Positions 7,491 to 23,691 are shown, counted from the first letter of the stretch. The stretch: DNA of 24,000 nt from Embleya sp. NBC_00888 (GCF_045207655.1 NZ_CP108784.1:230016-254015), one strand, 5' to 3'. Translations and numbers: made by a program. Notes: generated by a model from the letters alone, not told the origin.

Positions 7491-7505
7491 TTGTCGTCCT
7501 GATCA

Positions 7506-7948
7506 TCAGATCAGTGAGGCGTCCACGGTGAGGCGCCAGTGCGCGAACATGCGGGGGTATCGCCGGGCGATCTCCCGCAGTTTCGCGGTGGCCTTCCGCT
7601 TGGCCTTGAGCCGTTTGTACTTCTGGCGGATCCAGCGCACCAGGTAGGCGTTGATGCGCATCAGGAAGGGGTGCAGTTCCCACGGCCGGAAGCGGCCGAA
7701 GTAGTTGATCCAGCCCGCCACCATGGGGTTGACCCAGCGGGCGAGCTCGTTGAAGGACAGATCGGAGCGGGTGTGCAACTGCCAGGAGCGCACCTCCCGG
7801 CCGATCCTCGTCAGGGCGTCTCGGCTGACGGCCGGTTCGAACGACAGGAAGAGCCTGCCGTGTCGGTTCCGGTTTCGTCTGGCGCGGAACGTGTATCCGA
7901 GGAAGGTGAACGCCTCGTGCTCGAAAGAGCCTCGGCGGGAACCGTTCT
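7506..7948 (-). CDS. Outer-intron RT/maturase ORF, 3' segment (X/maturase domain)
   Basis: ...(K)NGSRRGSFEHEAFTFLGYTFRARRNRNRHGRLFLSFEPAVSRDALTRIGREVRSWQLH...VNPMVAGWINYFGRF...RINAYLVRWIRQKYKRLKAKRKA...* is collinear with the inner IEP's C-terminus. 817 nt + 443 nt = 1260 nt, which is 419 codons plus a stop once joined. Confidence 0.85.
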
Positions 7949-7988
7949 GTCGGGTGGCCCGGGGGAATCGCACCCCCGGGCTCCCACA

Positions 7989-8022
7989 GATCCCGGCGTG
8001 ACAGTCTCCCGTCACCGGGCTC
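7989..8022 (-). ncRNA. Group II intron domain V (inner intron)
   Basis: A 34-nt hairpin, GAGCCCGGUGAC-GGGA-GACUGUCACGCCGGGAUC. Relative to the outer copy the stem changes are compensatory. Confidence 0.85.
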
Positions 8023-8034
8023 TTACTGTCCTGG

Positions 8035-9297
8035 TCACCACACGCGCGGTACCGAAGGAACCCATTGCCAATGCACAAGCAGGCGAGGGTATCGCTTGAC
8101 GATCCCTTGCCAGCTCTCCTGGGCCTTCTTCCTTGACCGCAGCCGTTTGTATTTCTGACGGATCCATCGCACCAAGTAGGCATTGATGCGCGTCAGGAGG
8201 GGATACAGCGCCGATCTGTAGAAAGCGCCATAATAGTTTATCCAACCCCGCACGATCGGGTTGACCTCCCGTACGAGGTCCATGAAGGTGTGACCAGTGC
8301 GTGAGTGCAGCCTCCAAGACCGCACTTCTGCGCTGATCCTGTTCAAGGCATCCTTACTGATCGCAGGCAGGAACGAGGTAAACATCCTCCCCTCCTTGTC
8401 CCGCGCTCCGCGAGCCCGGAACGTATACCCCAGGAAGGTGAACGACGTGTACTCATGCGAGCCACGCCGCGTCCCGTCCCGGCAATAGACGATCCTGGTC
8501 TTCTCCGGATGCAGCGCCAGCCCGACCTCATCCATCCGCTCCGTTAGCGCCTTGAGTACAAAACGTGCCTGGCGTTCACTGAAACAGTGCAACACTGCAT
8601 CATCCACATAGCGTTCGAACCTGATGGCCGGGAACTTCCTGGCCATCCATGTATCGAAGGCGTAGTGGAGGAACAGGTTGGCGAGTACGGGTGAAACCGC
8701 AGACCCCTGAGGGGTTCCACGGTGGCGCTGCTGCAAGGTTCCGTCGGGTAGTTGCAGCGGGGCATTGAGCCACCGTCGCACATACAGCACCACCCACGGG
8801 AGGTCGGTGTTCGCCTCCACCGCTTTGACGATCAGATCCCACGGGACACTGTCAAAGAACTTCCGGATGTCGAGGTCGATCACCCAGTCGGCTTTCCAAC
8901 AGCGTCGCCGGCAGACCTCGACTGCGTCCAACGCGGAGCGCCTCGGCCGGTACCCATAGGAGTCCGGATGGAAGATCGGTTCGACCTTCCGCTCCAATAC
9001 CTGAGCCACTACCGTTTGCGCAATCCGGTCGCCCACAGTCGGCACCCCGAGAATCCTGGTGCCACCGCCATGCGTCTTGGCGATCTCCACCGCCTGCACG
9101 GGGGGCGGGAAATACGAACCGGAGGACATCCTGTTCCAGATCTTATACAGGTTTCCCTTGAGATCCTTCTCGAACTCCTCGATCGATACCCCGTCGACCC
9201 CCGGTGCACCCTTGTTCGCCTTGACCTTCTTGTATGCCTCCCAGACCGCCCGTTTCGAGATTTCGAACGGCTTGCCTGACGATTTCAACTCGTCCAC
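8035..9297 (-). CDS. Group II intron reverse transcriptase/maturase (RT + X domains, no En domain)
   Basis: GTG at 9297 lies 4 nt after GGGAGGAG; the listed ORF start at 9339 is further upstream. RT motifs: KGAPGVDG, PPPVQAVEIAKTHGGGTRILGVPTVGDRIAQ, FHPDSYGYRPRRSALDA, DIRKFFDSVPW, RGTPQGSAVSPVLANLFLH, the active-site variant YVDDAVLHC, and HPEKTRIVYC. Maturase/X region: FLGYTF...VNPIVRGWINYYG...RINAYLVRWIRQKYKRL. The protein ends 12 nt before domain V, and no HNH/En motifs are present. Confidence 0.9.
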   Translation of the reverse strand: MDELKSSGKPFEISKRAVWEAYKKVKANKGAPGVDGVSIEEFEKDLKGNLYKIWNRMSSGSYFPPPVQAVEIAKTHGGGTRILGVPTVGDRIAQTVVAQVLERKVEPIFHPDSYGYRPRRSALDAVEVCRRRCWKADWVIDLDIRKFFDSVPWDLIVKAVEANTDLPWVVLYVRRWLNAPLQLPDGTLQQRHRGTPQGSAVSPVLANLFLHYAFDTWMARKFPAIRFERYVDDAVLHCFSERQARFVLKALTERMDEVGLALHPEKTRIVYCRDGTRRGSHEYTSFTFLGYTFRARGARDKEGRMFTSFLPAISKDALNRISAEVRSWRLHSRTGHTFMDLVREVNPIVRGWINYYGAFYRSALYPLLTRINAYLVRWIRQKYKRLRSRKKAQESWQGIVKRYPRLLVHWQWVPSVPRVW

Positions 9298-9877
9298 GCG
9301 ACTCCTCCCGGGCATCAGCCCGGTTGATCGAACGAACAACAGTCACGGACAGCCCGGCCCCTTCGCTCCACCCCCATTACAGGAGCTTCATCACTACTAC
9401 GAACCGGTCCGCCGGCGGACCCCAACTCGGTACTCAGCTCCTTATGGTTCCTGCCACTTGGAGCGCTCCCTTTCGCCTACCCGAAGGTTGACGGCATGGG
9501 GCCCGCCTTCTCCCGTTCCATACGGAAGCGGCAGATCAGGATCACGTCGTCTACATGCCGGACACCGCCTGGCCAATAAACGGGCACCCGCCAGACTGGT
9601 CCCGGGATAACTGCAACATCCCGGTTTTGATGTCAGTTGTTCGTGTTACGACACGTCAGCAACGATTCGCTTGCGCTCGTCTTCCTGATCCCTACCTGAC
9701 GCCTCACGGGCGCCTTTTCCTCATCGCTCACCACGACGGTCTTCAGCCAACGCAGCATGAGGCGGTTTCAAGCCTCCCCCCGCAGGGCGACTTCGAAGGG
9801 CCTTCCTTCATCTTCCGTACAGCACCGCGTCAAATAGCTCTACCTACATAAAGCTCCCCTTCGCGTTCGGGACACAC

Positions 9878-10694
9878 TGCAGTACACGATCCGGGTCTTG
9901 TCCGGGTGCAAACGCAGCCCGACCTCGGCCATCCTGTCCGTGAGCGCGGTCAGGACCTCGCGGGCCTGGCGCTCGGTGACGCAGTGCAGCACCGCATCGT
10001 CCGCATAGCGTTCGAACCAGATGGTCGGGAACTCCCGGGCCATCCACGTGTCAAACGCGTAGTGCAGGAACAGGTTTGCCAGAACAGGAGAAACCGGGGC
10101 CCCTTGCGGGGTCCCACGTTCCCGTTCCACCAGGGAGCCGTCGGGCATGACGAGCGGGGCAGCGAGCCACCGCCGCACGTACAAGTTCACCCAAACGGCG
10201 TCGGTGTGCGCTTCCACCGCCTTGAGCAGCAGGTCCCAGGGCACGCTGTCGAAGAACCTGGCGATGTCGAACTCCACCACCCAGTCCCGCTTCCAGCAGC
10301 GCTCCCGGCATTTCGCCACCGCGTCCAAAGCGGACCGTCCAGTCCGGTATCCGAAGCTGTCCGGATGGAAAGCCGGCTCCACCCTCCGCATCAGATGCCG
10401 GGCCACCACGGTCTGTGCCACCCGGTCGGAGACAGCGGGAATGCCGAGCATCCTCGTGCCACCACCGTGCGGCTTGGGAATGGCCACCGCACGCACCGGC
10501 GGCGGAAAGTAGGAACCCGACGACATCCTGTTCCAGACCTTGTACAGATTGTTCTGAAGGTCTTTCTCGAAGTCGGCGATGCTCTGCCCGTCCACCCCAG
10601 GAGCGCCCTTGTTCCCCCTGACTTCCTCCCACGCCTCCTTGACTTCCCATTTCGAAATATCAAACGGCTTGACCTGAGACTTCAACTGGCCCAT
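9878..10694 (-). CDS. Outer-intron RT/maturase ORF, 5' segment (split by the inner intron)
   Basis: ATG at 10694 lies 4 nt after GGGAGGAG. The sequence MGQLKSQVKPFDISKWEV...KGAPGVDG...YADDAVLHC...HPDKTRIVYC runs up to the inner intron's 5' splice site. The read-through tail SVSRTRRGALCR* is intron sequence. Confidence 0.85.
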
Positions 10695-11714
10695 CGAACT
10701 CCTCCCGGAGAACATCCGGTTGATGCGATCAACACAGTCACGAACGACCCGACCCCTTCACTCCACCCCCGTTACAGGGGCTTCATCGCTACTACGAGCC
10801 GGTCCGCCGGCAGGACCCGCGTCGGTACTCGACCCCTTGCAGTGTCCGCTGCTTGGGGCACTCCCTCTCGCCCGCTACTACGCGGCGGGCAGTATCGGAC
10901 CTGCCTTCTCCTGTTCCACGCGGAAGCCGCAGACCGGACTCACGTCACCTACATGCCGGACACCACCTGGCCAATAGGCGGGCACCCGCCAGGCTCATCC
11001 CGGAGTTCGTCTCACACCCCGGTTCCGATGTCATCTGTCTGTCTTTCGACACGTCAGCAGCGATTCACTTGCGTTCGTCTTCCCGGTCCCCACCTGACGC
11101 CTCTTACGACGCCTTTTCCTCATCGCTCACCACGACGGCCTTCAGCCAACGCAGCATGAGGTGGTTTGGAGCCTCCCCCGCAGGGCGACTCCGAAGGGCC
11201 ACAAAACCTTCATCATCCGCACAGCACCACTCATGGAAGCTGTCCTACGACCAACTCCCTTTCATGTTCAGGACACAAGAAACGGGACACCTCCTCGCAC
11301 GGCCGCAGGGTCAGCGCTGCATGTCCGCAGATTTAGACCCCGGATGACACTCGGATACCGCGAATCTCGGAACCGGCACCGAGAGGGCGACGCGTGCTCG
11401 GCCGTCCTCGCGGGTTCGGCGCGCCCCATATGCCGATTCGAACCCGCGTTCTGCTCGGCGGAGGGCTGCATCTGTAACACCTGCGCGGTCTGTGGGACGT
11501 GAAAGACACTGTCGAGTCGTTGACGGTGGTGGTCCGTCCTGCCTGGCAGACCGGACCGCGAGCTTCCTCGTCGACCCGACCGCATCCTCGGAAGCGGGTG
11601 TCTCGCTGCGACCGGGCCAAAGGCCGTGGAGCTTGCAGCGATCCCGGCGCCGAGCGGATGCCTCGCGAGCGCGTGACGACGGTGGTCGGCGGGGCCCGCC
11701 ACAGAGTCCTGTCC

Positions 11715-12110: not shown

Positions 12111-13232
12111 GTGGCAGGGGGCTTTCCACAATGCCAGCCGCCGGCGATGGGTGCCGTGTCCGGGCAGACTTTCGATGCCCACGGCACCCATGCCTGTCGC
12201 CCCCCACACGCGAGTCGCGAGCGTGTCGAGAACCGCGCGTTCGATCGCCTCGGCGTCTCGGCCCGTGGGGGTGCCGAAGTCGGCAAGGAGCCGCCCGCTC
12301 ACGCTGCCCTGTACCGCGCCCTGCTCGACCACCGCGTGGACCCGAGCCCGGCCATGGTGCATCGCACCATGGCACTCGTGCGTGCCGCCGGCACCCGCTC
12401 CGCCGGCATCAACCCCGTCTACGCGCACACCCTCATGGTGGCCTGCTCCCACCCCCGCCACGCGCGCCTGTACGCCCGCATGGTCGTCGAGGCCGCCGAC
12501 CACCGCGCCATCACCCGCCACGCGGTCCGCCTCCGACAGGTCGCCGCCGCGGACCTCGCCCGCGACGGTATCGACGACACCCTGGCCCATCACCAGGCCC
12601 TGCACACCGCCCTCGACGACCTCGCCCACCGCTGGGGCGAACCCCGACCCGCCATCACACCAAGCCCAATCCACCCAAACCCTCCTGAGTCGCCCTGCCC
12701 GCGTGTCCTGAACGAGGAACAGACCCTGATCGCCGCGCTGATCATGGACCCCACACCGCTGGACGACATCATGCGCTGGCTCCACCCCGAGGACTTCATC
12801 GACCAGACGCACACGGTCCTGTACGGATGCGTGACGGCCCTCGTCCGCCGCGGTGAGACCGTCGATCCCCTGACGGTGCTGTGGGAGGCCCAACGCCGCG
12901 GCCACCTGGCCGACGACAACCTCGATCCCGAACTTGTCCTGAACATAAGCGCATCCGGCGTCGCCGGGAGCAGCGACTACTGGGCACGGCGCGTCGTGCG
13001 CACCGCACTCCTTCGAACCGCCGTCGTCGGCGCCCGCGCCGTGCGCGCACTCGCCGACAACCCGACCCTGTCACCTCGGTCACTTGTTTGCGCAGCACGC
13101 GAAGCGCTCGCTCCGCTGGATGCGACCCGCGCCCGTTGGCACACCGCAACGCGGCTCCCCACGAAGGCTCCACGCCGTCACGCACCCGGGCGGCTTCGAC
13201 CGCTGCCGACCGCTCGCCCACCACGAGTTTAA
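12111..13232 (+). CDS. DnaB-helicase N-terminal-domain-containing protein (no helicase/ATPase domain); start uncertain
   Basis: The C-terminal half matches the DnaB N-terminal domain pattern: EEQTLIAALIMDPTPLDDIMRWLHPEDFIDQTHTVLYGCVTALVRRGETVDPLTVLWEAQRRGHL...SSDYWARRVVRTALLRTAVVGARAVRALA. The N-terminal half is a more degenerate second copy: HAALYRALLDHRVDPSPAMV...INPVYAHTLMVACSHPRHARLYARMVVEAADHRAITRHAVRLRQVA. No Walker A motif anywhere. The start at 12111 is GTG with a poor SD. Confidence 0.7.
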   Translation: MAGGFPQCQPPAMGAVSGQTFDAHGTHACRPPHASRERVENRAFDRLGVSARGGAEVGKEPPAHAALYRALLDHRVDPSPAMVHRTMALVRAAGTRSAGINPVYAHTLMVACSHPRHARLYARMVVEAADHRAITRHAVRLRQVAAADLARDGIDDTLAHHQALHTALDDLAHRWGEPRPAITPSPIHPNPPESPCPRVLNEEQTLIAALIMDPTPLDDIMRWLHPEDFIDQTHTVLYGCVTALVRRGETVDPLTVLWEAQRRGHLADDNLDPELVLNISASGVAGSSDYWARRVVRTALLRTAVVGARAVRALADNPTLSPRSLVCAAREALAPLDATRARWHTATRLPTKAPRRHAPGRLRPLPTARPPRV

Positions 13233-13305
13233 CTCCCACGTCCCCACCAGCCCCGCCCCCCAGCGGGCCGAACGCGGAACATCCCTCGGCCACCGGGAGA
13301 CGCCC

Positions 13306-13590
13306 ATGACCGAAAACGCCTACCCCGTCTCATACCTGCGCCACCCACTCCACGTCGCCCAAGCGGTTGAACAGATCCGCCAAGCCCTCATCGACCCCCG
13401 TGCTGCCATCCTCACCGGCCGGTCCCCCGCCACCGGGGCACCTGGAACCGTCGCTCAACTGGCCTCGCTCCACGGCGTCCTGGCCTCCCTCGCCGCGCAG
13501 ATCAGCGACGAGATCACCGCCCGCTCCGACGTCCACGCGCGCACGGCGGCCTCCCGGACCACGACCGACATGTTCGTCGACGCTTCGTAG
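13306..13590 (+). CDS. Hypothetical small protein (94 aa), possibly the 5' part of a decayed longer gene
   Basis: ATG at 13306 lies 5 nt after GGGAGA. The sequence is MTENAYPVSYLRHPLHVAQAVEQIRQALIDPRAAILTGR...DMFVDAS*, with high GC3. Coding-like sequence continues past the TAG (see findings). Confidence 0.5.
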   Translation: MTENAYPVSYLRHPLHVAQAVEQIRQALIDPRAAILTGRSPATGAPGTVAQLASLHGVLASLAAQISDEITARSDVHARTAASRTTTDMFVDAS

Positions 13591-14090
13591 TACGCGAGCG
13601 ACGCCCTCGTCCACCTCGCCCAGGCCGTACGCCACGCCCAGGAACGGCAGGCCCTCGTCAACGGCGAACCCACACCCGAGGCCGATCCATCGCAGGCTCT
13701 TCCAGTACCTGGCCTACCGACTCACGGCCGCGACAACGGAACTGGGCCACCTCACATCGGCATTGCGCAGCGACCACCACGCGAGCGGCCACACCTACCC
13801 GTTTCCCACCAAGCGCGTGGTCGGCATCACCCCAATGGCCGGAAGCATCGTCGACGAGCAGTTCGCACTCGCCCACGCCCCCCACACGCGTGAGGCCGCT
13901 CTTCGCCGCTCGACGAGGCTCACCCCCATCTGCCCGACAACGGAACCGGGGCCGGGTGCGCACCCCGAACTCAACGAACCCCACCATTTGTTCCGAAGCG
14001 GGCACTAAGCCGTGCGGCAGGCCCTGATCTGGACTGATTTCGGGGATGCGCGAGGCACTTCGACAGCCGGTCGCCATAACGGCTGGGCGT

Positions 14091-14190
14091 CCATTGCACT
14101 TGGCTGAAACCGACAGTTGGGTATCCGTTGCATTTGGCGGAAACATGTCGGTTGGTTCGTCAATTGGCTGGAAGAACAGCCCCATTGTCA
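14091..14190. repeat. Degenerate tandem direct repeats, about 34-36 bp unit, 2 good copies plus 1-2 partial
   Basis: Unit 1, 14091-14124: CCATTGCACTTGGCTGAAACCGACAGTTGGGTAT. Unit 2, 14125-14160: CCGTTGCATTTGGCGGAAACATGTCGGTTGGTTCGT. A partial third copy is CAATTGGCTGGAAGAAC (14161-14177), and CCCATTGTCA (14181-14190) resembles a unit start. The repeats lie in a lower-GC non-coding spacer. Confidence 0.6.
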
Positions 14191-14550
14191 GCCCGGACCC
14201 CACAGCGTGCTGTCGACCCAAGCAAAAGGCCCCAGCATGCTGTTCGCCCGCTACTATTCCCCTTCAACGCCATCTGACCTGCGGTGGAGCAAGATCACCC
14301 GAACCTGCGCGCAGGGACCCGGCGCCCCAAACCCCGAGTGAAATACTTCATGGTTGGACGCAATTTCGGCATGTATCGCCGGTAGGCGAGTGCGTTGCAT
14401 CACTTACTACGCACCCCGCGAATTACGGCCGATGATCGTGCCTGTCTTGATCCTTACTTACCTTCATCGCCATCCCCTGTGATTATTTTGTGTGTTCAAC
14501 TTCGTTCGATATCCGCCCCGCCTGCCTTCACTGAAAGAGGTAATTTCGTG

Positions 14551-14841
14551 ATGAAGCTCAAGCGTGCAGCAAAACTCGTGGCCGCGTCCGGTGCGCTGAT
14601 CGTGGCGGTCGCCACCCCTGCAATGGCGACCATCGACTACCCCAGCGGCGGAACCTGGGACCACGGGGCCGGCACAGCCACCGTGTGGTCGCACTACCAC
14701 CACCCGTCCGTCTGCCACGGCTCGACCTCGGTCGGCACCTACACCGAGCGCGCATCGGCGGGTGCCGGATCCTGGTCCTACACGAGCGCCACCGCCAAGG
14801 CGTGGGGCAACGAGACCTACTACAGGACCACCTGCAACTAG
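14551..14841 (+). CDS. Lactococcin 972-family bacteriocin precursor (96 aa; predicted 26-aa Sec signal, 70-aa mature peptide)
   Basis: AAAGAGG SD lies upstream of GTG 14548 / ATG 14551. The signal peptide is MKLKRAAKLVAASGALIVAVATPAMA|TIDYP. The mature N-terminus GGTWDHGAGTATVWSHYHH parallels the Lcn972 signature EGTWQHGYGVSSAYSNYHH as I recall it. Genomic context is the family's canonical three-gene operon. Confidence 0.85.
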   Translation: MKLKRAAKLVAASGALIVAVATPAMATIDYPSGGTWDHGAGTATVWSHYHHPSVCHGSTSVGTYTERASAGAGSWSYTSATAKAWGNETYYRTTCN

Positions 14842-14859
14842 CAGTCAGCACGCGTAGCA

Positions 14860-14898
14860 GCCTCCGAAGGAGCCGTGCACCGCGGCCCCTTCGGAGGC
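14860..14898 (+). terminator. Stem-loop between the bacteriocin gene and the downstream membrane/ABC genes (terminator or attenuator)
   Basis: Perfect 11-bp inverted repeat GCCTCCGAAGG (14860-14870) / CCTTCGGAGGC (14888-14898), with additional inner GCCG/CGGC pairing. It starts 19 nt after the stop codon. The downstream T-tract is only weak (GCGCTTTCCCC). Confidence 0.55.
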
Positions 14899-14952
14899 AT
14901 GCGCGCTTTCCCCATGGCCGGCCGATCCCTCTCATAGCCCTGTAGGACACGC

Positions 14953-17043
14953 ATGCCGCATCGTGGCGTCAAGTTCGCGCACTTCGTCATCCTGGCGTTC
15001 TCCCCCCTGTTTTCCTTTCTGTTCCTCAAGAGCTTCGAAGAGCAGTGGACCCTGGGCTACGACACGGTCGTCCAGGTCACCGAGTCGCGGGACACCAGCA
15101 CCAGCCAAGCCGTAGTGCAAGCCATCGAGACCTTCGCCCGCGACCATGACGTCACCGTGGGTCGGCAGGAGGTCGACCTGAAACAGCCGGACCGCAGCCG
15201 TGACCTCTACCTCACCGTGGCCGGCCCCCGCGCGAACTGGCTCGATGGCGGCTATCCGGCGTTCAACCCCGGACAGCCCACCAGGACCCGACCGCTCACC
15301 GACCTCTCCAATCGCGACCCGCAGGGCCTGTACTACCTCTTCGGCGATCCCAACGCCGTCGGACCCTTCCTCGAACTGCTGGAGCAGCACGGCCTCATCA
15401 CACGGCACGTCGAGCCGACCTCCTTCGACCAGCTCTCCCTTGCCTACGACGGCAGCGCCCTGGTCGGATCCCTCGTCGTCGTCGCACTGGCCTGCTTCAC
15501 CATGACCGGCGCCGGCGTTCTGCTCAGCGCCAAGTCCTACGGAGTGCTGCGTTTGCAGGGCATGTCCCTGCCCGCGATCCTGGCCCGCGACCTACGCCGC
15601 CTCGCGCGCTTCTGGACCACTGCCCTCGTCGTCGTGGCGGTCGCCGCAACCGGGCTGCTCGGCTGGTACAACCACCTTGCCTGGTTCGGCCTGTTCGCCA
15701 TCGTCACCGCCGCAACGGCTGCGGCGTTCACCGCGCTCGTCCTCGCCGTCCACGCCGCGACTCTCGCACTGACCGCACGCATCGGTGTCCTGGCCGCCCT
15801 CAAGGGCGAGATCCCTGCCCGCGCCGCAGCCGTCGCGTCCTATCTCGTGCGTGTGCCCGCGCTCCTGCTCACCTTGGGAATCGCCGCCACGGTCCTGCAG
15901 GCCGGACAGGATCTGGTCCGCCGTGAGGACACTCTGGGCGTGTACGAGAAGGCGGGCGACGCCTCCTCCATCCGCCTCAGCGGCGCCCTCGGAGGCCCGG
16001 ACGAAGTGACAAAGATGGAGGCGAAAATCGGCCCGTGGCTCCGTCAGGCCGACGCCGACGGCCGGATCGTTCTCGCCGGCCACATTGACCTTGCACGCTC
16101 AAGCGAAGCCCAGATGCTCCCTGCGAAACATCTGATGGTCGTCAACGAGACCTTCCTCGAACAGCAAAAGATCCTGGCCCCGGACGGCCACCGCTACCCC
16201 GCCACCAGAGGCCGCGACGGCCGCATCCTCCTTCTTGTCCCCGAGCACCTGGCGCCGTACACCGACAAGCTCACCACCCTGGTGCCGAGCATCGTCACCC
16301 CGTCCGATCCAGGCCGGATCACACCCGGGCAGATCGACGTTCGGCCCAGCGCAGACAGCCAGAAAATCTTCACCTACAACGCCCGCGGCGCCCGCCAAGC
16401 GGGGCGGGACCGGCCCTCGGACGCGTCCTTCCTCACCGACCCCGTCATCGTCGTCGTCCCCAACGGCACCGACTACATCACCGACATGGATTACACCGCC
16501 TACGCCTCCCAGCGCAGGATTGTCTTCCCGGACTCCGCCGACATCACCGCCGGCATCGACGCTCACGATCTGCGCGATGAAATCATCGGCACCAGCCCCG
16601 TCGCCGCCGACGCGGCCCAGGCCATCCGCGAAATCACCGCCGACTTACGCCTGAGAGTGTTCAACCTGGCCATCGCCCTCATGGTTCTGCTCGTCACCGG
16701 AATCGGCGTCGTCATCGTCCACACCCGCCACAACGCCCAGCGGATCTTCGCCCGGCACATCCACGGCTGGACATTCGCCGCGACCCACCGCACTCTCCTG
16801 GCCGCGGAAGCCGCGATCGTCGCCCTGCTCGTCTCCTGGATCCCCTACCAGGTCCACAAATCCAACCAGGGTCTCGAACGGTACAAGGCCATAGGCATCC
16901 CCCCACCCCGCGACCCCACGACCATCACCGGTCAGGACCTGACCGCCATCGCCTGCCTTGTCGCGGTCGAGATCACCGTCATCCTGCTTGTCCTGACCTT
17001 CTTCCACCGCCGTGTCGTCAAGGAAGGATCGACCGAAGCGTGA
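14953..17043 (+). CDS. Bacteriocin-associated integral membrane protein (DUF1430 / Lcn972-operon putative immunity-transport permease)
   Basis: 696 aa. There is an N-terminal TM (FAHFVILAFSPLFSFLFL), a soluble domain of about 140 aa, a cluster of TM helices (about 15440-15900), a second soluble domain of about 230 aa, then three C-terminal TM helices. This is the topology of the large membrane protein encoded next to lcn972-type genes. Its stop overlaps the next gene's start (GTGA). Confidence 0.8.
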   Translation: MPHRGVKFAHFVILAFSPLFSFLFLKSFEEQWTLGYDTVVQVTESRDTSTSQAVVQAIETFARDHDVTVGRQEVDLKQPDRSRDLYLTVAGPRANWLDGGYPAFNPGQPTRTRPLTDLSNRDPQGLYYLFGDPNAVGPFLELLEQHGLITRHVEPTSFDQLSLAYDGSALVGSLVVVALACFTMTGAGVLLSAKSYGVLRLQGMSLPAILARDLRRLARFWTTALVVVAVAATGLLGWYNHLAWFGLFAIVTAATAAAFTALVLAVHAATLALTARIGVLAALKGEIPARAAAVASYLVRVPALLLTLGIAATVLQAGQDLVRREDTLGVYEKAGDASSIRLSGALGGPDEVTKMEAKIGPWLRQADADGRIVLAGHIDLARSSEAQMLPAKHLMVVNETFLEQQKILAPDGHRYPATRGRDGRILLLVPEHLAPYTDKLTTLVPSIVTPSDPGRITPGQIDVRPSADSQKIFTYNARGARQAGRDRPSDASFLTDPVIVVVPNGTDYITDMDYTAYASQRRIVFPDSADITAGIDAHDLRDEIIGTSPVAADAAQAIREITADLRLRVFNLAIALMVLLVTGIGVVIVHTRHNAQRIFARHIHGWTFAATHRTLLAAEAAIVALLVSWIPYQVHKSNQGLERYKAIGIPPPRDPTTITGQDLTAIACLVAVEITVILLVLTFFHRRVVKEGSTEA

Positions 17044-17711
17044 TCGACCTGACCGGGCTGTCCAAGTCCTTCGGCCCCCGTACCCTGTGGCAGGACCTGA
17101 CCTTCACCATCGAAACCAAGCGTCTCCTCGCTCTCACCGGCCCCAGCGGATCCGGCAAGTCCACCCTCCTCAACTGCCTCGGGCTCCTCGACACCCCCAC
17201 CGTCGGCACAATTCGCCACAACGGCCAGGACATCACCAGGCTCAGCCACCGCAAAGCCCGCCTCTACCGCCGGGACACCCTCGGCTACCTCTTCCAGAGC
17301 TATGCCCTGATCGACAACGCCACCATCGCCGACAACCTCAGCCTCGCGGCCAAGCCCAGCCGCTCGCTCCGCGCCTCCCGCCCCACACTCGACCAAGCAC
17401 TGGAGCAGGTCGGCCTGGCCGGCCGCGGAGACGACATCGTCCACCGCCTCTCGGGTGGTGAGCAGCAACGCGTCGCTCTCGCCCGCCTCATCGTCAAGCA
17501 ACCCGCCCTCGTGCTGGCCGACGAGCCCACTGGTGCCCTCGACCCCGACAACACCCGCACGGTCATCGCCATCCTTCGCTCCCTGGCCGACACCGGCTGT
17601 GCCGTAGTGATCGCCACCCACGACCCCACCGTCCGGGACCTGTGCGACAGCGTCCTCCAAGTGGGCATCGACACCCATCCTCACCTCGTCAAGGAGAGCA
17701 CCACTGCATGA
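17040..17711 (+). CDS. ABC transporter ATP-binding protein (lactococcin-972-group type by context)
   Basis: Walker A GPSGSGKST, Q-loop LFQS, signature LSGGEQQRVALAR, Walker B LVLADEPTGALD, H-loop ATHD. GTG at 17040 overlaps the upstream TGA (GTGA), which suggests translational coupling. Confidence 0.9.
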   Translation: MIDLTGLSKSFGPRTLWQDLTFTIETKRLLALTGPSGSGKSTLLNCLGLLDTPTVGTIRHNGQDITRLSHRKARLYRRDTLGYLFQSYALIDNATIADNLSLAAKPSRSLRASRPTLDQALEQVGLAGRGDDIVHRLSGGEQQRVALARLIVKQPALVLADEPTGALDPDNTRTVIAILRSLADTGCAVVIATHDPTVRDLCDSVLQVGIDTHPHLVKESTTA

Positions 17712-17744
17712 ATGCGCGTCTCTCCCGGCCTGTCGCCGTCGCCC

Positions 17745-18313
17745 TGGTTGTCGACGCCTTCGGTGCGTCCGTTGTGGTGGGCCAGGTGAGAGCCGCGCTG
17801 ACGGCCTCATGGTCGAGTTCGAGACCGTTCGCGAAGGCGTGCAGGTGGGGAAGGCTGGATGCGCGGACGGCCTCGATCCACGTTGTCAACCCTGTGCCGT
17901 TGCCCGGATTGGGGACAACCCGTTTGGCGACCCCCTCACGAGAACCGCGATTTGCGTCATCTCGGGGCAGACGGCGGTGAGGTCTCGGATGAGTTCGGCA
18001 TCGCTCTCGCGCAGGTTGCCGGGGCGCGTGAGGAAAAGCTGGGCGAAGCGCCTGGGCGTGGTCACGGGCCGGTCGCCTTCGGCGCGTCCTCGGGTGACAG
18101 AGCGGTGGAAAGGGTTGAACCTACCGGTGTAGCCGGCTTCCTCCGCCTGGCCTTCCTCACCCTCGCCACAGCCACAAACGACGACGGCAACTCACCACGT
18201 AGGACTCGCTCCAACCAAGGGCCATACTGCTGTCCGGTGTAGGCGTCGCAATCCACATCGAACCGGGAAGCCCTCGCTCGTTCAACCCCGCACCCCCATG
18301 CGATCCGCACCAA
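17745..18313 (-). pseudogene. ISL3-family transposase remnant (C-terminal part, multiple frameshifts, 5'- and 3'-truncated)
   Basis: Minus-strand pieces lie in different frames. They read DAYTGQQYGPWLERVLRGELPSSFVAVARV...; RFAQLFLTRPGNLRESDAELIRDLTAVCPEMTQIAVLVR; VAKRVVPNPGNGTGLTTWIEAVRASSLPHLHAFANGLELDHEAVSAALTWP; and HNGRTEGVDNQ. Together these follow the ISL3 C-terminal consensus (..cPe...l..Fa.ll......L..Wi.a...s.lP.L..Fa.gl..d..AV.aalt.p.sNG.tEG.N..iK). The homology stops before the expected KMLKRQMYGRA tail. Confidence 0.6.
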
Positions 18314-18578
18314 CCTCCGCAGTCAGTACAACAGGCGAAACAGGCCGACGACCAGGACCACGCGACGAAGGCGACGTATGGCAGTCCGCGCAGCAACATC
18401 GTGGCGGCCATACGCCGCGTAAGGCCGCAGTGGCCGTGGCACCGGGTGGGCCTTTGATGGACCGCCTCCGCATCGAGGCCTCCGGTGGGTGAGTGTCGGC
18501 GGGTCTGGTGCGTTGGAGACCCCTGCGTGCACTTCCCTCCATTGCCCAGCCGACGGCCGAGTGAGTGAACTCCCCGTG

Positions 18579-18597
18579 TATACATCGAATGTATAGT
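18579..18597 (+). promoter_or_regulatory. Palindromic operator overlapping a -10-like hexamer directly upstream of the PadR gene
   Basis: Perfect inverted repeat TATACAT-CGA-ATGTATA (18579-18595). TATAGT (18592-18597) ends 6 nt before ATG 18604, which implies a leaderless or near-leaderless transcript. No convincing -35 was seen. Confidence 0.5.
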
Positions 18598-18603
18598 CAC
18601 GCC

Positions 18604-19137
18604 ATGTCCATCGGCCATACCTTTCTGGGACTGCTCGAACAAGAGCCCCGCCACGTCTACGACCTCAAGCGCACGTTCGACAAGCGCTTCGGGAGCAGTC
18701 GCCCGATCTCGTACGGGCAGGTCCACGCGACGCTGTCCCGCCTGCTGCGCAACGGCCTCGTCGGGGTCGACGCCCTTGAGCCCGGCGCCGGACCCGAGCG
18801 CAAGCGCTACGCGATCACCGACGCGGGTCTGACCGACGTCGAGGAGTGGCTCGCCCGGCCCGAGAAGCCCGAGCCGTACCTCCGGAACACCCTGTACACC
18901 CTGTACACCAAGGTTGTCCTCGCCCTGCTCTCCGGTCGCGCCGCGGCCGAACTGCTGGACACCCGGCGCGCCGAGCACCTGCGGCTGATGCGCGAGCTGA
19001 CCACGCGCAAGCACGCGGGTGACATCGCCGACCAACTCATCCGCGACCACGCGCTGTTCCACCTGGAGGCCGACATCCGCTGGCTCGAACCGACCCGGAC
19101 AAGGCTCGACCGTCTCGCCGCGGAGGTGCAGGCGTGA
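18604..19137 (+). CDS. PadR-family transcriptional regulator
   Basis: MSIGHTFLGLLEQEPRHVYDLKRTFDKRFGSSRPISYGQVHATLSRLLRNGLVGVDALEPGAGPERKRYAITDAGLTDVEEWL is a PadR winged-helix signature (L.lL...p.hGYdl....,...g.iY..L.rL...Glv.......r..rk.Y.iT..G). A C-terminal helical dimerisation region follows. Confidence 0.85.
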   Translation: MSIGHTFLGLLEQEPRHVYDLKRTFDKRFGSSRPISYGQVHATLSRLLRNGLVGVDALEPGAGPERKRYAITDAGLTDVEEWLARPEKPEPYLRNTLYTLYTKVVLALLSGRAAAELLDTRRAEHLRLMRELTTRKHAGDIADQLIRDHALFHLEADIRWLEPTRTRLDRLAAEVQA

Positions 19138-19838
19138 ACGGCACCGAGCCCGGGGCCCTGCTGGCCGCGGCGGACCTGCGCAAGACGTACGGCGCCACAC
19201 CCGCGCTGAACGGCGCCTCGATCGAGATAGACGCCGGCGAGGTCGTCGCCGTGATGGGCCCGTCCGGATCGGGCAAGTCGACGCTGCTGCACTGCCTGGC
19301 GGCGATCGTCGCCCCCGATGGCGGATCGGTCCGGTACGCCGGGCAGGAGTTATCCACGATGTCCGATCGGGGCCGCAGCGCCCTGCGCCGGTCCGACTTC
19401 GGATTCGTGTTCCAGTTCGGGCAGCTCGTGCCCGAACTGACCTGCGGGGAGAACGTCGCGCTGCCGCTGCGCCTGAACGGCGTGCCGCGCCGCCAGGCGA
19501 ACGCACGCGGCCGGGAGTGGCTGGAGCGGTTGGAGGTCGCCGAACTCGCCGACAGGCACCCCGGGGAGGTGTCCGGCGGCCAGGCCCAGCGGGTCGCGGT
19601 GGCCCGCGCGCTGGCCCCCGGGCCACGTGTGGTGTTCGCGGACGAGCCGACCGGCGCGCTCGACTCGCTCACCGGGGAACGTGTGATGCATCTGCTGACC
19701 TCGGCTGCCCGGGAGGGCGGCGCGGCGGTGGTGCTGGTCACCCACGAGACCCGGGTGGCCGCGTACTCCGACCGTGAGGTGGTCGTGCGCGACGGGCGCA
19801 CGCCCACCGCGCGCCGTGTCCCGGCGGCGCGTCCGTGA
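19134..19838 (+). CDS. ABC transporter ATP-binding protein (MacB/FtsE-like subfamily)
   Basis: GGAGGTG SD lies 5 nt before GTG 19134, which overlaps the PadR stop (GTGA). Walker A GPSGSGKST, Q-loop VFQF, signature VSGGQAQRVAVARAL, Walker B VVFADEPTGALD, H-loop VTHE. Confidence 0.9.
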   Translation: MNGTEPGALLAAADLRKTYGATPALNGASIEIDAGEVVAVMGPSGSGKSTLLHCLAAIVAPDGGSVRYAGQELSTMSDRGRSALRRSDFGFVFQFGQLVPELTCGENVALPLRLNGVPRRQANARGREWLERLEVAELADRHPGEVSGGQAQRVAVARALAPGPRVVFADEPTGALDSLTGERVMHLLTSAAREGGAAVVLVTHETRVAAYSDREVVVRDGRTPTARRVPAARP

Positions 19839-22147
19839 GCCACCGGATCTCCCCCACCGCCCACCGGGGCGCGGCCTTCGGGCGGGCTCGCGCGACCGCG
19901 ATGGGCGCGCGTTTCGCCGTCACCCGCGCGTCGTGGCCCCGGACGCTGCTGATGGTTGTCGGCATCGGACTCGGGACCTCGTTACTTCTGCTGGCGTCCG
20001 CACTGCCCGGCATGCTGGAAGCTCGCGAGCGGCGCGGCGCGGCGATCGTGGAAATCGCGAGCAGCCGGCTCACCGCCCCGGGCGAGAACACGCTCGTGAT
20101 CGCCTACGCCAACACCGAATACCGCGACCGGGACGTGCGCGGCCGGCTGGTGCGTGCCGAAGGGTCGCGGCCACCGGTGCCACCGGGGCTGCGGGCGCTG
20201 CCCGGACCGGGCGAGATGGCCGTTTCGCCCGCGCTGGCGCGGCTGCTGGAACGGCATGATGGCGCGCTGCTGCGCGAGCGCCTGCCGTACCGGGTGGTGG
20301 CGACCATCGGCGACGACGGGCTGACCGGCCCGGCCGAGCTCTCCTACTACGCGGGCAGCGCCACGCTGGCCGTCGACGACGGCTCGCGCGTCGACGGCTT
20401 CGGCACACCACGGGGGTCCGCGAGGCTCGATCCGCTGCTGACGCTGCTCGTGGTGACCGCCCTGGTAGTGGTGCTGACGCCGGTGGCGGTGTTCGTGGCG
20501 GTCGCGTCGCGGTTCGGCGCGGACGCGCGCGAGCGGCGGCTCGGGGCCCTGCGCCTGGTCGGCGCCGACCTGTCCACCACCGGGTGGATCGCGGCCGGGG
20601 AGGCCCTCGCGGCGGCGGCGGGCGGCCTGACCGCGGGCCTGGTCCTGTTTTTGCTGGGCCGCCATGTGATCGGCTCGGTGGAGCTGTGGCGGCTGAGCGT
20701 GTTCCCCGCCGACGTGCAGCCCACCCCCGTGCTCGCGGTACTGGTCGTGGCGGCTGTGCCCCTGATAGCGGTGGCGGTGACCCGGGCGGGCCTGCGTAGG
20801 GTCGTGATCGAGCCCCTGGGTGTGGTGCGCCGGGCCCCGCGCCCGCCGCGGCGCGGGTGGCGGATCGTGCCCGGTCTCACCGGCGTCGTGCTGCTGCTGA
20901 CCCTGATGAACGGCGGCGGCACGCGCGGCGGGGGCATGGCGCCGTGGCTCGCCGCCGCCGGGATCGTGCTCATGCTGGTCGGCCTCACCGCGCTGCTGCC
21001 GGGGGGTGTGAGTGCGGTCGCGGCCCGGGGCGGGCGCGGCCCGCTGCCCTGGGTGCTGGCCCGGCGCCGACTGGCCGCCGACGCGGCGGGCTCGACGCGG
21101 CTGGTCGGCGGCGTGACCGTCGCGGTGGCCGGCGCCATCGCGGTGCAGATGCTGCTGGCCGGCCTCGCCGGCACCTTCACCACACCGACCGGCCAGAACC
21201 CGGACCGCGCCGACCTGTTCGTGAGCACGAAGGGCGATCCGGCCGGTGCCACCGCGCTCGCCGCGACCGTCGGCGTACGCTCCGCGTTCACATTCACCGC
21301 AACGTCCGCGCGCGTGCGCGGGGCGGCCGGGGGCAACGAGATACCACTGGTCGTCGGCACGTGCACGGCACTTCGCGAACTCGCCGCAGTGGGCGCGTGC
21401 GCGCCGGGTGACGTGTTCACCGTGGCGTCGCCGTACGGGGAAACGCGGGTCGGGCCGGGCAGCGTGGTGGAGCTGACCATGACCGGTCGCGACGGCCCGG
21501 TGGCGTGGACCGTGCCGCGGTCGGCCACCGAGGTCGCCGCCGCGCCCGATCCGGTGCGCCAGTCGCGATACGGGCTGTTCCTGACGCCGGAGGCGCTGGG
21601 GGCCGCCGGCCGGTCGGCGGCGGGACGGCTGATCGCCTTCGTGCGCCTGGACCCCAACCGCCACGACGCCGCCGACCGGGTGCGCAACACGGCCGCCCGG
21701 ATCGACCCGTCGGCGTCGATCCTTCCCGTGACCGCGACCACCGAGGATCGCATGTTCGCGAACATCCGCCGCGGGCTCCTCGCCGGGGCAACGCTGACGC
21801 TGGGCCTGGTCGCCGCCGGCATGCTCGTGTCGTCGCTGGAGCAGATGCGGGAACGACGGCGCCCGCTGGCCGCGCTTGCCGCGCTCGGCACCCCGCGCCG
21901 CACCATGGCGCTGTCGCTGATGGCCCAGGCCGCGGTGCCGATGGTGCTGGGACTGGCCCTCGCGCTGGCCGGGGGCCTCGGGCTCGGGTCGCTGCTGCTG
22001 GCGGTGTTCGGCGAACGCCCGCGCCTGGACCCGGGATTCGTCGCGTCGGTGACCGCCGCAGGCTGCGCCGCGGTCGTGGCGGTGACGGTGCTGAGCCTGC
22101 CCGCTCTGTGGCGCCTGATGCGACCCGAGGGGCTGCGCATGGAGTGA
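19835..22147 (+). CDS. ABC transporter permease with two FtsX-like domains
   Basis: GTG at 19835 overlaps the ATPase stop (GTGA). 770 aa. There is an N-terminal TM plus an extracytoplasmic domain, then an FtsX block (...FGADARERRLGALRLVGADLSTTGWIAAGEALAAAAGGLTAGL...). A second extracytoplasmic domain follows, then a second FtsX block (...EQMRERRRPLAALAALGTPRRTMALSLMAQAAVPMVLGLALALAGG...). Confidence 0.85.
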   Translation: MSHRISPTAHRGAAFGRARATAMGARFAVTRASWPRTLLMVVGIGLGTSLLLLASALPGMLEARERRGAAIVEIASSRLTAPGENTLVIAYANTEYRDRDVRGRLVRAEGSRPPVPPGLRALPGPGEMAVSPALARLLERHDGALLRERLPYRVVATIGDDGLTGPAELSYYAGSATLAVDDGSRVDGFGTPRGSARLDPLLTLLVVTALVVVLTPVAVFVAVASRFGADARERRLGALRLVGADLSTTGWIAAGEALAAAAGGLTAGLVLFLLGRHVIGSVELWRLSVFPADVQPTPVLAVLVVAAVPLIAVAVTRAGLRRVVIEPLGVVRRAPRPPRRGWRIVPGLTGVVLLLTLMNGGGTRGGGMAPWLAAAGIVLMLVGLTALLPGGVSAVAARGGRGPLPWVLARRRLAADAAGSTRLVGGVTVAVAGAIAVQMLLAGLAGTFTTPTGQNPDRADLFVSTKGDPAGATALAATVGVRSAFTFTATSARVRGAAGGNEIPLVVGTCTALRELAAVGACAPGDVFTVASPYGETRVGPGSVVELTMTGRDGPVAWTVPRSATEVAAAPDPVRQSRYGLFLTPEALGAAGRSAAGRLIAFVRLDPNRHDAADRVRNTAARIDPSASILPVTATTEDRMFANIRRGLLAGATLTLGLVAAGMLVSSLEQMRERRRPLAALAALGTPRRTMALSLMAQAAVPMVLGLALALAGGLGLGSLLLAVFGERPRLDPGFVASVTAAGCAAVVAVTVLSLPALWRLMRPEGLRME

Positions 22148-22553
22148 CCGCCCGGAGGCGGGCCGAGTGCCGACGCCCCGCCGGAAGGTGTACGCGGCAC
22201 GGGAGTCGGGGCATGGCCCCGGCACCGTGCCGTTCGCTCGCTCGCTCGCTACCTGACCGTCCCTCAGGCACCGTGTATCGCCGGGGAACCGGCGGCCGGG
22301 GGCGCTGGACTGCCGACCGCGCCGCGTTCGAGCGCGCCGCACCAGCGAGCGCCCACCCCGGCCGGCGTCCTGCGGACGCCGGCCGCGATCCACCGCCACC
22401 ACCCTGGCGCTTGCCGCCACGTGCGTTGAAGAACCCGACGCGCGACCGGACTGTGTCACGTTGCGTGAGATGGCCTAGTACTCCAGACGCACTTGCCGAT
22501 CTTGGTTCGAGAGTGCGGGAACCAGAGCAGCCACCGCGTGATCCAGGTGAGGT

Positions 22554-22958
22554 GTGTGGACTCAAAAGGATCGTGCGGTGGCTGCGGGTCACAGGATAGA
22601 CCTCGACCGTTGGGCGTCGCTGTTCGGTGTGGTGATGTTGCGGGTCGGGGGTCGGTTCGTCCGAAGTGAACCCCGTTCGGCAGCGAAGGACTTCGTTGCC
22701 GGCTTGCTGTCGACGGTCGAGCGCAAGAACTGCTGGAACCTCGCCGAACATGCGGGTCACGGACGGCCCGACGCGATGCAGCGGCTGTTGCGGTCGGCCC
22801 GCTGGGACTCCGACGCGGTCCAGGGCGACCTCGTCGCCGAGCGTCTCGGGGTTCCCGACGGAATCCTGATCGTGGACGAGACCGGATTCCTGAAGAAGGG
22901 CGTTCACTCGGCCGGCGTCCAACGGCAGTACTCCGGGACCGCGGGGGCTTGTATCTGA
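22554..22958 (+). pseudogene. IS701-family transposase, N-terminal fragment (3'-truncated)
   Basis: RFVRSEPRSAAKDFVAGLLSTVERKNCWNLAEHAGHGRPDAMQRLLRSARWDSDAVQGDLVAERLGVPDGILIVDETGFLKKGVHSAGVQRQYSGTAG matches the IS701 N-terminal consensus (F.R.E.R......gLL....RKN.W.lAE..G...P..mQ.lL....WD.d.v......DETGf.KKG..S.GV.RQYsGTAG). It then ends abruptly (ACI*) before the DDE core. Confidence 0.75.
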
Positions 22959-22965
22959 ATAACTG

Positions 22966-23361
22966 TCAGAGTTGATCCGCCGCGTGGACTTTGTCAGGCA
23001 GGTGGGATCGAATCTGTTCCAGGCTGCGAGCCGGCGATCCGGGCAGTGGTGTGACGACGATGCGGTGCAAGTCCAAGAGGCGGTGGCCGTCCTGGAACTG
23101 GTTGGAAAGGTTGGTGCGGGTGACGCCGAGCAGCTCCGCGAGGAGGGTGCTGGTGATCACCCTGCGGCGGCGTAACAGCGCTGCCAAAAGGCGGTGGTAG
23201 TGGTCCAGGCTGCTGGTCTGCGGGTGGAGGTAACTGCGTGGCCGGTGAAAGCGTCGTTGGAAGGCAGCCTCGGCCATGGCGTCCCAGTACGGTTCGGAAA
23301 CTGCCACCAGGCGTTCGAAGTCGGACCTCGGCATGCCGGTCAGGGCCGGATCGGTGAGCAT
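22966..23361 (-). pseudogene. IS5-like (DDE_Tnp_4-type) transposase-family protein, N-terminal HTH fragment
   Basis: MLTDPALTGMPRSDFERLVAVSEPYWDAMAEAAFQRRFHRPRS...LDHYHRLLAALLRRRRVITSTLLAELLGVTRTNLSNQFQDGHRLLD resembles the N-terminus common in actinobacterial 'transposase family protein' genes (LTGL...eFe.L...l.p.w.........l.l.drLLatLl.lR..lt...LA.LfGV.RsTv...i). No DDE domain follows. It reads in the same frame as the ISAzo13 fragment upstream of it. Confidence 0.45.
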
Positions 23362-23424
23362 CGTGGTCAGGGCGGGGTCGATCCGGCGGGCGGTGATCGG
23401 CATCTCCGGCATTCGGGGCGGGAC

Positions 23425-23691
23425 GGGCGCCAGGGTGTAGTTCCAGTCGCCGTGGAACGCGTCGGGCGTGATCGGCAGGGCTTGGAACTCGGCGGCGGTG
23501 ACGGTCGCGCCCAGGAGGTAGCTGCCGGTGTCCAGCTCGGCGCCGATCGTCAGCCCGGTGCGGGTGGTCGTCGCGGCAATGGTCTCGATGACGACCTGGT
23601 AGCTGGTCAGCGGTCGGCCGCGCCAGTTCGCGGTGATGTGGCAGAACATCCGGTGTTCGATCTTGTTCCACTTCGACGTGCCGGGCCAATG
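23425..23691 (-). pseudogene. ISAzo13-family transposase, C-terminal fragment
   Basis: HWPGTSKWNKIEHRMFCHITANWRGRPLTSYQVVIETIAATTTRTGLTIGAELDTGSYLLGATVTAAEFQALPITPDAFHGDWNYTLAP matches the conserved ISAzo13 C-terminus (PPGTSKWNKIEHRLF..I..NWRG.PL......lI..TTT.tGL.V...LD...Y..G..v.......l.....FHG.WNYt..P). About 300 N-terminal codons are missing; the fragment begins right after the stop of the adjacent IS4-like ORF. Confidence 0.75.

Follow-up and report, generated by a model that had tools for sequence, protein, structure and literature searches.

The window analysed here is a stretch of 24,000 nucleotides from Embleya sp. NBC_00888 (GCF_045207655.1, NZ_CP108784.1:230016-254015), and it contains an intact lactococcin 972 (Lcn972)-type bacteriocin and self-protection cassette, of a kind that is common in Streptomyces-like actinomycetes. 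The cassette consists of three genes, all on the plus strand. The precursor gene (14551-14841) encodes 96 amino acids, or 97 if the in-frame GTG at 14548 is the start codon, and it is preceded by a ribosome-binding site (GAAAGAGG, 14533-14540, plus strand). The gene for the membrane protein, which we refer to as the permease (14953-17043), encodes 696 amino acids and has AGGA 7 nucleotides before its ATG; a filter on guanine-cytosine (GC) content by codon position picked the frame 14938-17043 as coding. The gene for an ATP-binding cassette (ABC) ATPase (17040-17711) encodes 223 amino acids and overlaps the permease gene as GTGA, as is seen in the sequence itself (AGCGTGATCG), and translation of the ATPase appears to be coupled to the permease gene through this overlap. 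An earlier note on this DNA had described three genes in the canonical Lcn972 order at these positions, with the last two overlapping as GTGA, and both the layout and the overlap were confirmed. The order precursor-permease-ATPase is also kept in Embleya, Streptomyces, and Haloactinospora. When the three genes were compared with their Embleya orthologues, whose proteins are about 91% identical, the ratios of nonsynonymous to synonymous substitution rates (dN/dS) were 0.32 for the precursor, 0.29 for the permease, and 0.49 for the ATPase. These values of 0.29-0.49, together with the open reading frame (ORF) calls, indicate three real genes under purifying selection, and it is nearly certain that they form an Lcn972-family cassette.

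The precursor scored 57 bits (E 2.9e-15) with the Pfam model PF09683 (Lactococcin_972), whose cut-off is 22, and the match covers model positions 1-62 of 62. A comparison of this 96-residue ORF with the hidden Markov model of the Lactococcin_972 family was the check that the earlier note had proposed, and the match is significant. The older TIGR01653 model gave 25.2 bits, which is below its cut-off of 32.1, and the precursor also aligned with the solved Lcn972 structure 2LGN (E 4e-5) and with 9HKJ (E 1.4e-3). The ORF at 14551-14841 is the sole one of Lcn972 type in the window, where no second precursor gene was found. By inspection, the first 26 amino acids (MKLKRAAKLVAASGALIVAVATPAMA, 14551-14628, plus strand) form a predicted Sec signal peptide that would be cut after AMA. 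The signal peptide is composed of the n-region MKLKRAAK with four basic residues, a hydrophobic core, and an A-x-A motif before the cut, and 16 homologues all keep its residues A21, A24, and A26. Inspection of the N-terminus revealed no double-glycine leader, twin-arginine motif, or lipobox Cys, and these features agree with the Sec-dependent precursor and cleavable signal peptide that had been proposed before. The predicted mature peptide (14629-14838, plus strand) comprises 70 amino acids with a mass of 7.5 kDa, an isoelectric point (pI) of 6.5, and two Cys residues. It carries the family core GGTWDHGAGT..VWSHYHH..CHGSTS, and the alignments to 2LGN and 9HKJ as well as the family alignment revealed that GTWxHG ... 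YSxYHH ... HxxT is common to the precursor and Lcn972. The 70-residue mature peptide with a GTW.HG...YHH core thus stands as the earlier note had it, and the sequence quoted there is correct. The precursor model predicted by AlphaFold2 (AF2) is all-β with five strands, and its mean predicted local distance difference test score (pLDDT) is 62, with about 80 in the core. Lcn972 itself folds as a β-sandwich of two three-stranded sheets. Weak Foldseek matches of this model to haemagglutinin heads (E > 0.1) were set aside as uninformative, the model being of low confidence.

The two Cys residues are located at precursor positions 55 and 95, corresponding to mature positions 29 and 69 as first reported, and neither varies in any of the 16 homologues of the clade alignment. 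The presence of two Cys residues had been taken as a feature that sets this peptide apart. When we counted Cys residues in the best 150 representatives of the family, however, exactly two turned out to be the commonest state (95 of 150) and the norm among actinomycete members; 27 of the 150 have none, as Lcn972, and 127 have an even number. The family alignment sorts the members into classes. Class A, which includes the window precursor, combines x-C-H-G (position 55) with a C-terminal Cys, and class B combines S-G-C (position 69) with a C-terminal Cys. Class C has a close C-N-x-x-x-C loop pair without a C-terminal Cys, and class D has no Cys. In the actinomycete loci, 67 precursor ORFs belong to class A and 17 to class B. 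The terminal Cys is present in 51 of the 56 sequences with Cys55; of the five without it, four appear to be truncated or frameshifted.

According to the AF2 model, β2 (55-61) starts at residue 55, β3 (64-70) closes with residue 69, and the final strand ends at residue 95. From these strand positions, 55 and 69/70 would be expected to lie opposite each other where the β2-β3 hairpin is open. A terminal Cys that is partnered with either position 55 or position 69 is what would be expected if it were disulfide-bonded to that spot. Based on these observations, we consider it likely that a Cys29-Cys69 disulfide (mature numbering) ties the C-terminal strand to the β2-β3 hairpin. The idea of a disulfide that staples the C-terminus, already put forward in the earlier note, is therefore strengthened by the invariant Cys pair, the mostly even Cys numbers across the family, and the alternative partner positions. 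In the solved structures, the position-55 site is occupied by Thr (2LGN) and Val (9HKJ), neither of which is Cys. The single Asn after the last Cys of the Embleya peptide is a trivial variant, and a single extra residue occurs in other members too.

The ATPase contains an intact Walker A motif (GPSGSGKST), signature (LSGGEQQR), Walker B motif (LVLADEPT), and H-loop (ATHD), and it matched PF00005 with an E value of 6e-33. Its best NCBIfam model was TIGR03608 (L_ocin_972_ABC), which was matched over the full length with 216 bits (E 3.7e-64), below the cut-off of 254.85; the next-best models were FtsE, DarD, DevA, MacB, and LolD. The third gene is accordingly an ABC ATPase, as it had been called, and judging from the sequence it appears to belong to the FtsE/LolD/MacB-like group, the subfamily that partners type VII ABC permeases.

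The permease matched TIGR01654 (bacteriocin-associated integral membrane protein) with 63 bits against a cut-off of 189 (E 1.6e-17, positions 170-642 of 681), which is a real but distant homology outside the curated family limits. No significant Pfam match was found for this protein, DUF1430 reaching 14 bits against a cut-off of 28.2, and sub-threshold DUF1430 matches were present in 17 of the 29 homologues. The previous description as a multi-pass membrane protein of about 700 residues thus holds, with 696 residues and eight hydrophobic segments, and the DUF1430 label attached to it is weak. A 'seven-transmembrane DUF1430 protein' is how an Lcn972-associated protein has been described in the literature (PMC12345188). 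We built an AF2 model of the permease on an alignment of 29 sequences, and the model has a pLDDT of 83.5 and a predicted template modelling score of 0.75. It contains eight long helices, which match the eight hydrophobic segments and are arranged in two modules. In the model, module 1 is formed by the first transmembrane (TM) helix, a predicted outer domain of ~130 amino acids (about residues 30-160), and TM2-4, and module 2 by TM5, a predicted outer domain of ~240 amino acids (about residues 320-560), and TM6-8.

When the permease model was compared with the PDB using Foldseek, the leading structures were YbbP (9ge6, E 1.6e-7) and five states of BceB (E 3e-5 to 2.6e-4, with 7tcg and 8g4c at 3e-5), and the alignments to both proteins span the full length. 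The later matches were the pneumococcal MacB-like Spr0694/5 (5xu1), MacB, LolC/E, HrtB, and FtsX, and the top matches are all of type VII. Based on the model, the 696-residue protein is probably an eight-TM, two-module ABC permease of the FtsX/MacB type (type VII). This predicted fold agrees with the subfamily of the ATPase and suggests immunity by mechanotransmission or target protection, not export. The permease is the presumed immunity component. A literature search joining lactococcin 972 with BceAB, FtsX, or MacB gave no top-ranked paper that names lactococcin 972.

Two non-coding parts belong to the cassette. The region upstream of the precursor gene (14009-14550, plus strand) has a GC content of 57%, in agreement with the lower-GC spacer that had been noticed before the operon; it travels with the cassette and is a candidate promoter/operator. 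Within it, a block at ~14440-14510 is conserved in six Embleya/Streptomyces loci and contains the direct repeat GTTCAA-N4-GTTCGA (14494-14509), which looks like a regulator binding site, and we infer a promoter function for 14009-14550. The second part is a GC-rich stem-loop with 16-bp arms between the precursor and permease genes (GCCTCCGAAGGAGCCG / CGGCCCCTTCGGAGGC, 14860-14898, plus strand). The folding energy of the intergenic RNA is -49.7 kcal/mol (z = -3.3), and a strong hairpin occurs at the same position in five of the five loci folded (the window, Embleya, two Streptomyces, and Haloactinospora). Since the hairpin is kept although its sequence is unrelated in loci L002 and L005, it is a conserved structural feature. 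A scan of 13900-18600 for intrinsic terminators revealed no U-tract at this hairpin, which probably acts as a partial terminator or stabilises the transcript, and in this way would increase precursor mRNA over transporter mRNA.

We then examined the distribution of the cassette. With one genome per species, permease relatives were found in at least 138 species-level actinomycete genomes, mostly of Streptomyces, with others in Nocardiopsis, Embleya, Salinactinospora, Sphaerisporangium, Haloechinothrix, Acrocarpospora, Spongiactinospora, and Kibdelosporangium. A precursor ORF of the Lcn972 family lies directly upstream of the permease gene in 78 of the 85 loci examined. The closest precursor, from Embleya sp. 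NPDC008237, is 91% identical, and the others, from Streptomyces and Haloactinospora, are 54-68% identical. Most precursor homologues with a source name are called 'lactococcin 972 family bacteriocin' at NCBI, and many of the 74 close database clusters of the permease are named 'bacteriocin-associated integral membrane family protein'. An exhaustive profile search yielded 470 clusters of the family when members were grouped at 50% identity. The cassette sits at different chromosomal sites with differing flanks in each genus examined. Some loci depart from the simple arrangement: loci L044, L046, L056, L085, and L087 contain two precursor genes per cassette in tandem, loci L020, L036, and L057 contain an extra inverted precursor copy on the opposite strand beyond the transporter, and Spongiactinospora rosea (L077/L083) contains two whole cassettes about 9 kb apart.

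It had been supposed that Lcn972 is the only studied member of the family, which is not the case. Streptococcin B (scbABC of S. pneumoniae; PMC11796350), Lmo2776 of Listeria (PMC6854461), and mediterrocin of M. gnavus (PMC12345188) have been functionally studied, and Bifidococcin_664, an actinobacterial member from B. longum subsp. infantis, has been studied as well (bioRxiv 10.1101/2022.01.27.477972). Three of these papers were searched for 'disulfide' and 'cysteine', and neither word is used there in a relevant sense. Lcn972-family genes have also been listed in S. albus J1074 (cluster 16, SSHG_03731; PMC3992020), in Propionibacterium and Bifidobacterium (PMC4289311), and in Brevibacterium on a genomic island (PMC5719810). 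The novelty claimed for actinobacteria was thus overstated, as actinobacterial and Streptomyces members have already been listed and are named at NCBI; what stands is that the Streptomyces-type members are uncharacterised in the literature searched. The Embleya cassette is an uncharacterised example of a family that is already annotated automatically.

Based on these observations, we suggest that the best overall explanation, with a probability of roughly 75%, is a Sec-exported, disulfide-stapled bacteriocin of the Lcn972 type with type VII ABC immunity. The cassette would probably encode a secreted protein of predicted antibacterial activity and an ABC-mediated means of self-protection. The operon would be transcribed from the low-GC upstream region, and the hairpin may end or stabilise most transcripts after the first gene, so that precursor would be abundant and transporter scarce. 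The accepted export route of the Lcn972 family is Sec, and streptococcin B requires neither ComAB nor BlpAB (PMC11796350); the precursor would be exported by Sec and cleaved after Ala26. The 70-residue β-sandwich domain would then be oxidised extracellularly, with Cys29-Cys69 stapling the C-terminal strand to the β2-β3 hairpin. By homology to Lcn972, the mature protein may block septal wall synthesis in related Gram-positive competitors by binding to lipid II or to a different precursor of the cell wall. Binding of lipid II and blocking of septum formation are known for Lcn972 only (PMC4055356, PMC9964109). The mature peptides of the clade are acidic to neutral (pI 4.7-6.5), while Lcn972 has a pI of 9.7, and such a pI makes binding of the anionic lipid II less certain. 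Mainly because of this difference between the acidic clade and the cationic Lcn972, we rate the chance that lipid II is the target, which is assumed by analogy, at about even.

For the immunity part, one permease chain with two FtsX-type modules and two copies of the ATPase would form a type VII ABC machine that protects the producer. Like BceAB or YbbAP, this machine may strip the bacteriocin from its membrane target through ATP-driven movement of the outer domains, without any export. BceAB shields the lipid II cycle's intermediates against peptide antibiotics through target protection (PMC7038271), and YbbAP pulls hydrophobic compounds out of the membrane (PMC12646458). In Lactococcus, orf2-orf3 have been treated as immunity genes (PMC4055356). 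Since BceAB protects lipid II-cycle intermediates, a mechanism of this kind would suit immunity against a lipid II binder.

Here, we need to consider several points that weigh against this explanation, in addition to the pI of the peptides. First, Foldseek of the precursor model, which is of moderate confidence, against the PDB gave no match with E <= 0.001, and 2LGN was not among the 50 matches shown. Second, the TM-scores (template modelling scores) of the permease in Foldseek are modest (0.33-0.41), and its profile gave no significant sequence match to PDB chains. The FtsX domain PF02687 is absent from the matches of the permease and is found weakly (E 0.0033) in one of the 29 homologues. 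Comparison by hhalign of the permease profile with the window's own FtsX permease, which is encoded in a separate downstream module described below, was not significant, and hhalign of the N-terminal half against the C-terminal half gave a probability of 1.5%, so that no duplication is detectable in the sequence. Since no link was found at the sequence level, the type VII assignment rests on the predicted structure with its modest TM-scores. Third, the matches to TIGR01653, TIGR01654, and TIGR03608 are all below the curated cut-offs. Fourth, a scan of 13900-18600 revealed no sigma-70 consensus promoter. Finally, B and C gene function is experimentally unverified in every Lcn972 locus (PMC11796350), and the literature searched contained no experimentally characterised member of the Streptomyces/Embleya/Nocardiopsis type.

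Other explanations were also weighed. It is possible, although unlikely, that the Lcn972-fold protein is a self-directed or signalling factor acting on the producer's own septation or sporulation or on a host, with the type VII ABC as its sensor or effector partner. Such a role would suit peptides that are acidic and not cationic, and a family that is very widespread in filamentous, sporulating actinomycetes. Immunomodulatory or non-classical effects have been described for some relatives (bioRxiv 10.1101/2022.01.27.477972; PMC6854461), and BceAB-type transporters double as sensors (PMC11009047). However, Lcn972, streptococcin B, Lmo2776, and mediterrocin all inhibit bacteria (PMC4055356, PMC11796350, PMC6854461, PMC12345188), and the cassette is accessory, patchy, lower in GC, and sometimes equipped with duplicated or divergent precursors, as is typical of competition genes. 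Moreover, the flanking ORFs that were scanned revealed no two-component system or further signalling gene, and neither histidine kinase nor response regulator domains occur in them; the nearest regulator is the PadR protein of the separate module.

Slightly less probable still is the idea that the permease-ATPase pair is a dedicated bacteriocin exporter or processing transporter and not an immunity device. TIGR03608 is named 'putative bacteriocin export ABC transporter', many class II bacteriocins have dedicated ABC exporters, and the unverified status of the B and C genes (PMC11796350) leaves room for this function. On the contrary, the precursor has a Sec-type signal with the conserved A-x-A and no double-glycine leader, and the permease is without a peptidase domain. 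Type VII ABC members work from the outer face of the membrane and are not known to move substrates across it, and the predicted fold of the permease is of this type (MacB/FtsX/BceB/YbbP). The orf2-orf3 pair of Lactococcus is regarded as immunity genes (PMC4055356). A silent or decaying relic without a functional product, carried along with mobile DNA, is a highly improbable reading of the cassette, since despite the group II introns and transposase fragment nearby, the missing consensus promoter, and dN/dS values above the usual core-gene level, the three ORFs are intact with starts, ribosome-binding sites, and complete ATPase motifs, dN/dS is < 0.5 for each gene, the family motifs and both Cys residues are retained, and the upstream non-coding block is conserved.

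We therefore retain the stapled bacteriocin with type VII ABC immunity as the most probable explanation. As a tentative extension, which we would not put at even odds, the Streptomyces-type Lcn972 proteins may represent a distinct, disulfide-stapled acidic subfamily with a differing target or binding mode, protected by an unrecognised minimal (eight-TM) BceAB/YbbAP-like stripping machine. If true, such a machine would explain what the B and C genes do across the entire Lcn972 family, where their function has long been missing. As a discovery the locus itself carries little weight, as the family, the operon layout, and the presence in actinobacteria are known and pipelines already name the genes. 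The conserved Cys pair gives a simple stability hypothesis, the predicted BceAB/YbbAP-like fold of the permease gives a concrete candidate mechanism for the immunity genes, and narrow-spectrum lipid II binders from actinomycetes could be of interest for antibiotic discovery.

Detailed comparison with known systems revealed both likenesses and differences. The cassette resembles the Lcn972 operon (lcn972-orf2-orf3 of the L. lactis plasmid pBL1) in the same order of three genes, a signal peptide of the Sec type, a mature domain of ~66-70 amino acids, and the shared core, which can be written G-T-W-x-H-G ... Y-S-x-Y-H-H ... H-x-(S/A)-T, although the identity in the aligned core is only about 30%. 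Lcn972 is cationic (pI 9.7) and has no Cys, whereas the Embleya peptide has two conserved Cys residues, six extra N-terminal residues, and a pI of 6.5. In addition, Lcn972 is encoded on a plasmid of a low-GC lactic acid bacterium, while the Embleya cassette is apparently chromosomal (the permease is on an 8.05-Mb contig) in a high-GC actinomycete. The TIGRFAM models were made from Firmicutes members, and the Embleya proteins score under their cut-offs. With the cassettes of Streptomyces, Embleya, and Nocardiopsis, the present one shares the gene order, protein sizes, two Cys residues, and intergenic hairpin; it differs from its Streptomyces/Embleya relatives by one extra C-terminal Asn past the last Cys and by its chromosomal neighbourhood.

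Streptococcin B, Lmo2776, mediterrocin, and Bifidococcin_664 are similar in family, A-B-C locus logic, Sec-type leader, and predicted β-sandwich, and their loci encode a presumed immunity protein of DUF1430 type and an ABC protein (PMC11796350, PMC12345188, PMC6854461, bioRxiv 10.1101/2022.01.27.477972). Unlike Embleya, their sources are host-associated Firmicutes or Bifidobacterium. Pneumococcal streptococcin B is under ComE/ComR control, while no regulator is evident at the Embleya locus. BceAB of B. subtilis, which confers bacitracin resistance, and E. coli YbbAP are likened to the predicted machine by a single fused double-FtsX permease, for which they are the best structural matches of the model, and by an ATPase of the same FtsE/LolD/MacB-like group. 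They differ from it by the lack of significant sequence similarity and by 10 instead of 8 predicted TM helices, and in the model the permease has two large outer domains and not one. Moreover, no two-component system of the BceRS type, as in BceAB, is present among the flanking ORFs scanned.

Finally, we examined the surroundings of the cassette. DNA similarity to a related Embleya locus (L001) spans 14009-22145 only, with about 90% identity (89.7%) over the cassette (14009-17712), and the shared block consists of the cassette and a PadR-ABC-FtsX module. This module (18565-22147, plus strand), which begins 850 bp downstream, encodes a PadR regulator together with an ABC ATPase and a 770-residue double-FtsX permease, and is a second type VII ABC module. 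Its counterpart in L001 lies at 13333-16875, with a permease that is 88% identical; the match to the L001 PadR, called as 115 amino acids, falls into two parts (residues 1-128 and 136-190) with only 58-62% identity. The module was rejected as a part of the cassette, as it is present only in the window and the related Embleya locus and absent from 80-odd other loci.

Two nested group II introns (7413-11235), which are paralogues with 67-76% identity, lie on the minus strand 3.3 kb upstream of the cassette. The outer intron comprises domains D1-D4 at 11092-11211 and D5/6 at 7417-7492, and its reverse transcriptase (RT) ORF is interrupted by the inner intron, which leaves an RVT portion at 9840-10715 and a maturase portion within 7506-8183. 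The inner intron is apparently intact, with D1-D4 at 9694-9809, an RT/maturase ORF at 8035-9339, and D5/6 at 7949-8024. A transposase fragment (22966-23649, minus strand), which corresponds to the last 75 positions of a model for ISAzo13-type DDE transposases, lies 5 kb downstream. The position between mobile-element debris, claimed in the earlier note, is thus true in a loose sense, since the introns and the transposase fragment lie on either side but do not adjoin the cassette, and the PadR-ABC-FtsX module intervenes.

The mean GC content of the cassette is 66.6%, compared with 70.4% in the immediate flanks, and it is lower than that of the flanks in 58 of 62 loci; this compositional signature of the cassette is consistent across genera. 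No convincing terminal inverted or direct repeats bounding 14009-22145 were found, so that no discrete mobile element can be defined, and no tRNA genes were found in the window. The low GC content and the varying neighbourhood, even without element boundaries, point to an accessory cassette that spreads by horizontal exchange. Horizontal acquisition, as proposed earlier, is plausible from the difference of ~4 GC points and the varying context, while flanking repeats or boundaries that would mark it are lacking. Between the introns and the cassette, the region 12111-13590 contains a 373-residue ORF with only the N-terminal domain of a DnaB helicase (residues 199-268) and no ATPase domain, followed by a 94-residue ORF, and the two may be what is left of a replication module from a plasmid or phage. 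Behind the FtsX permease gene of the downstream module, a hairpin with 25-bp arms is located at 22527-22585.

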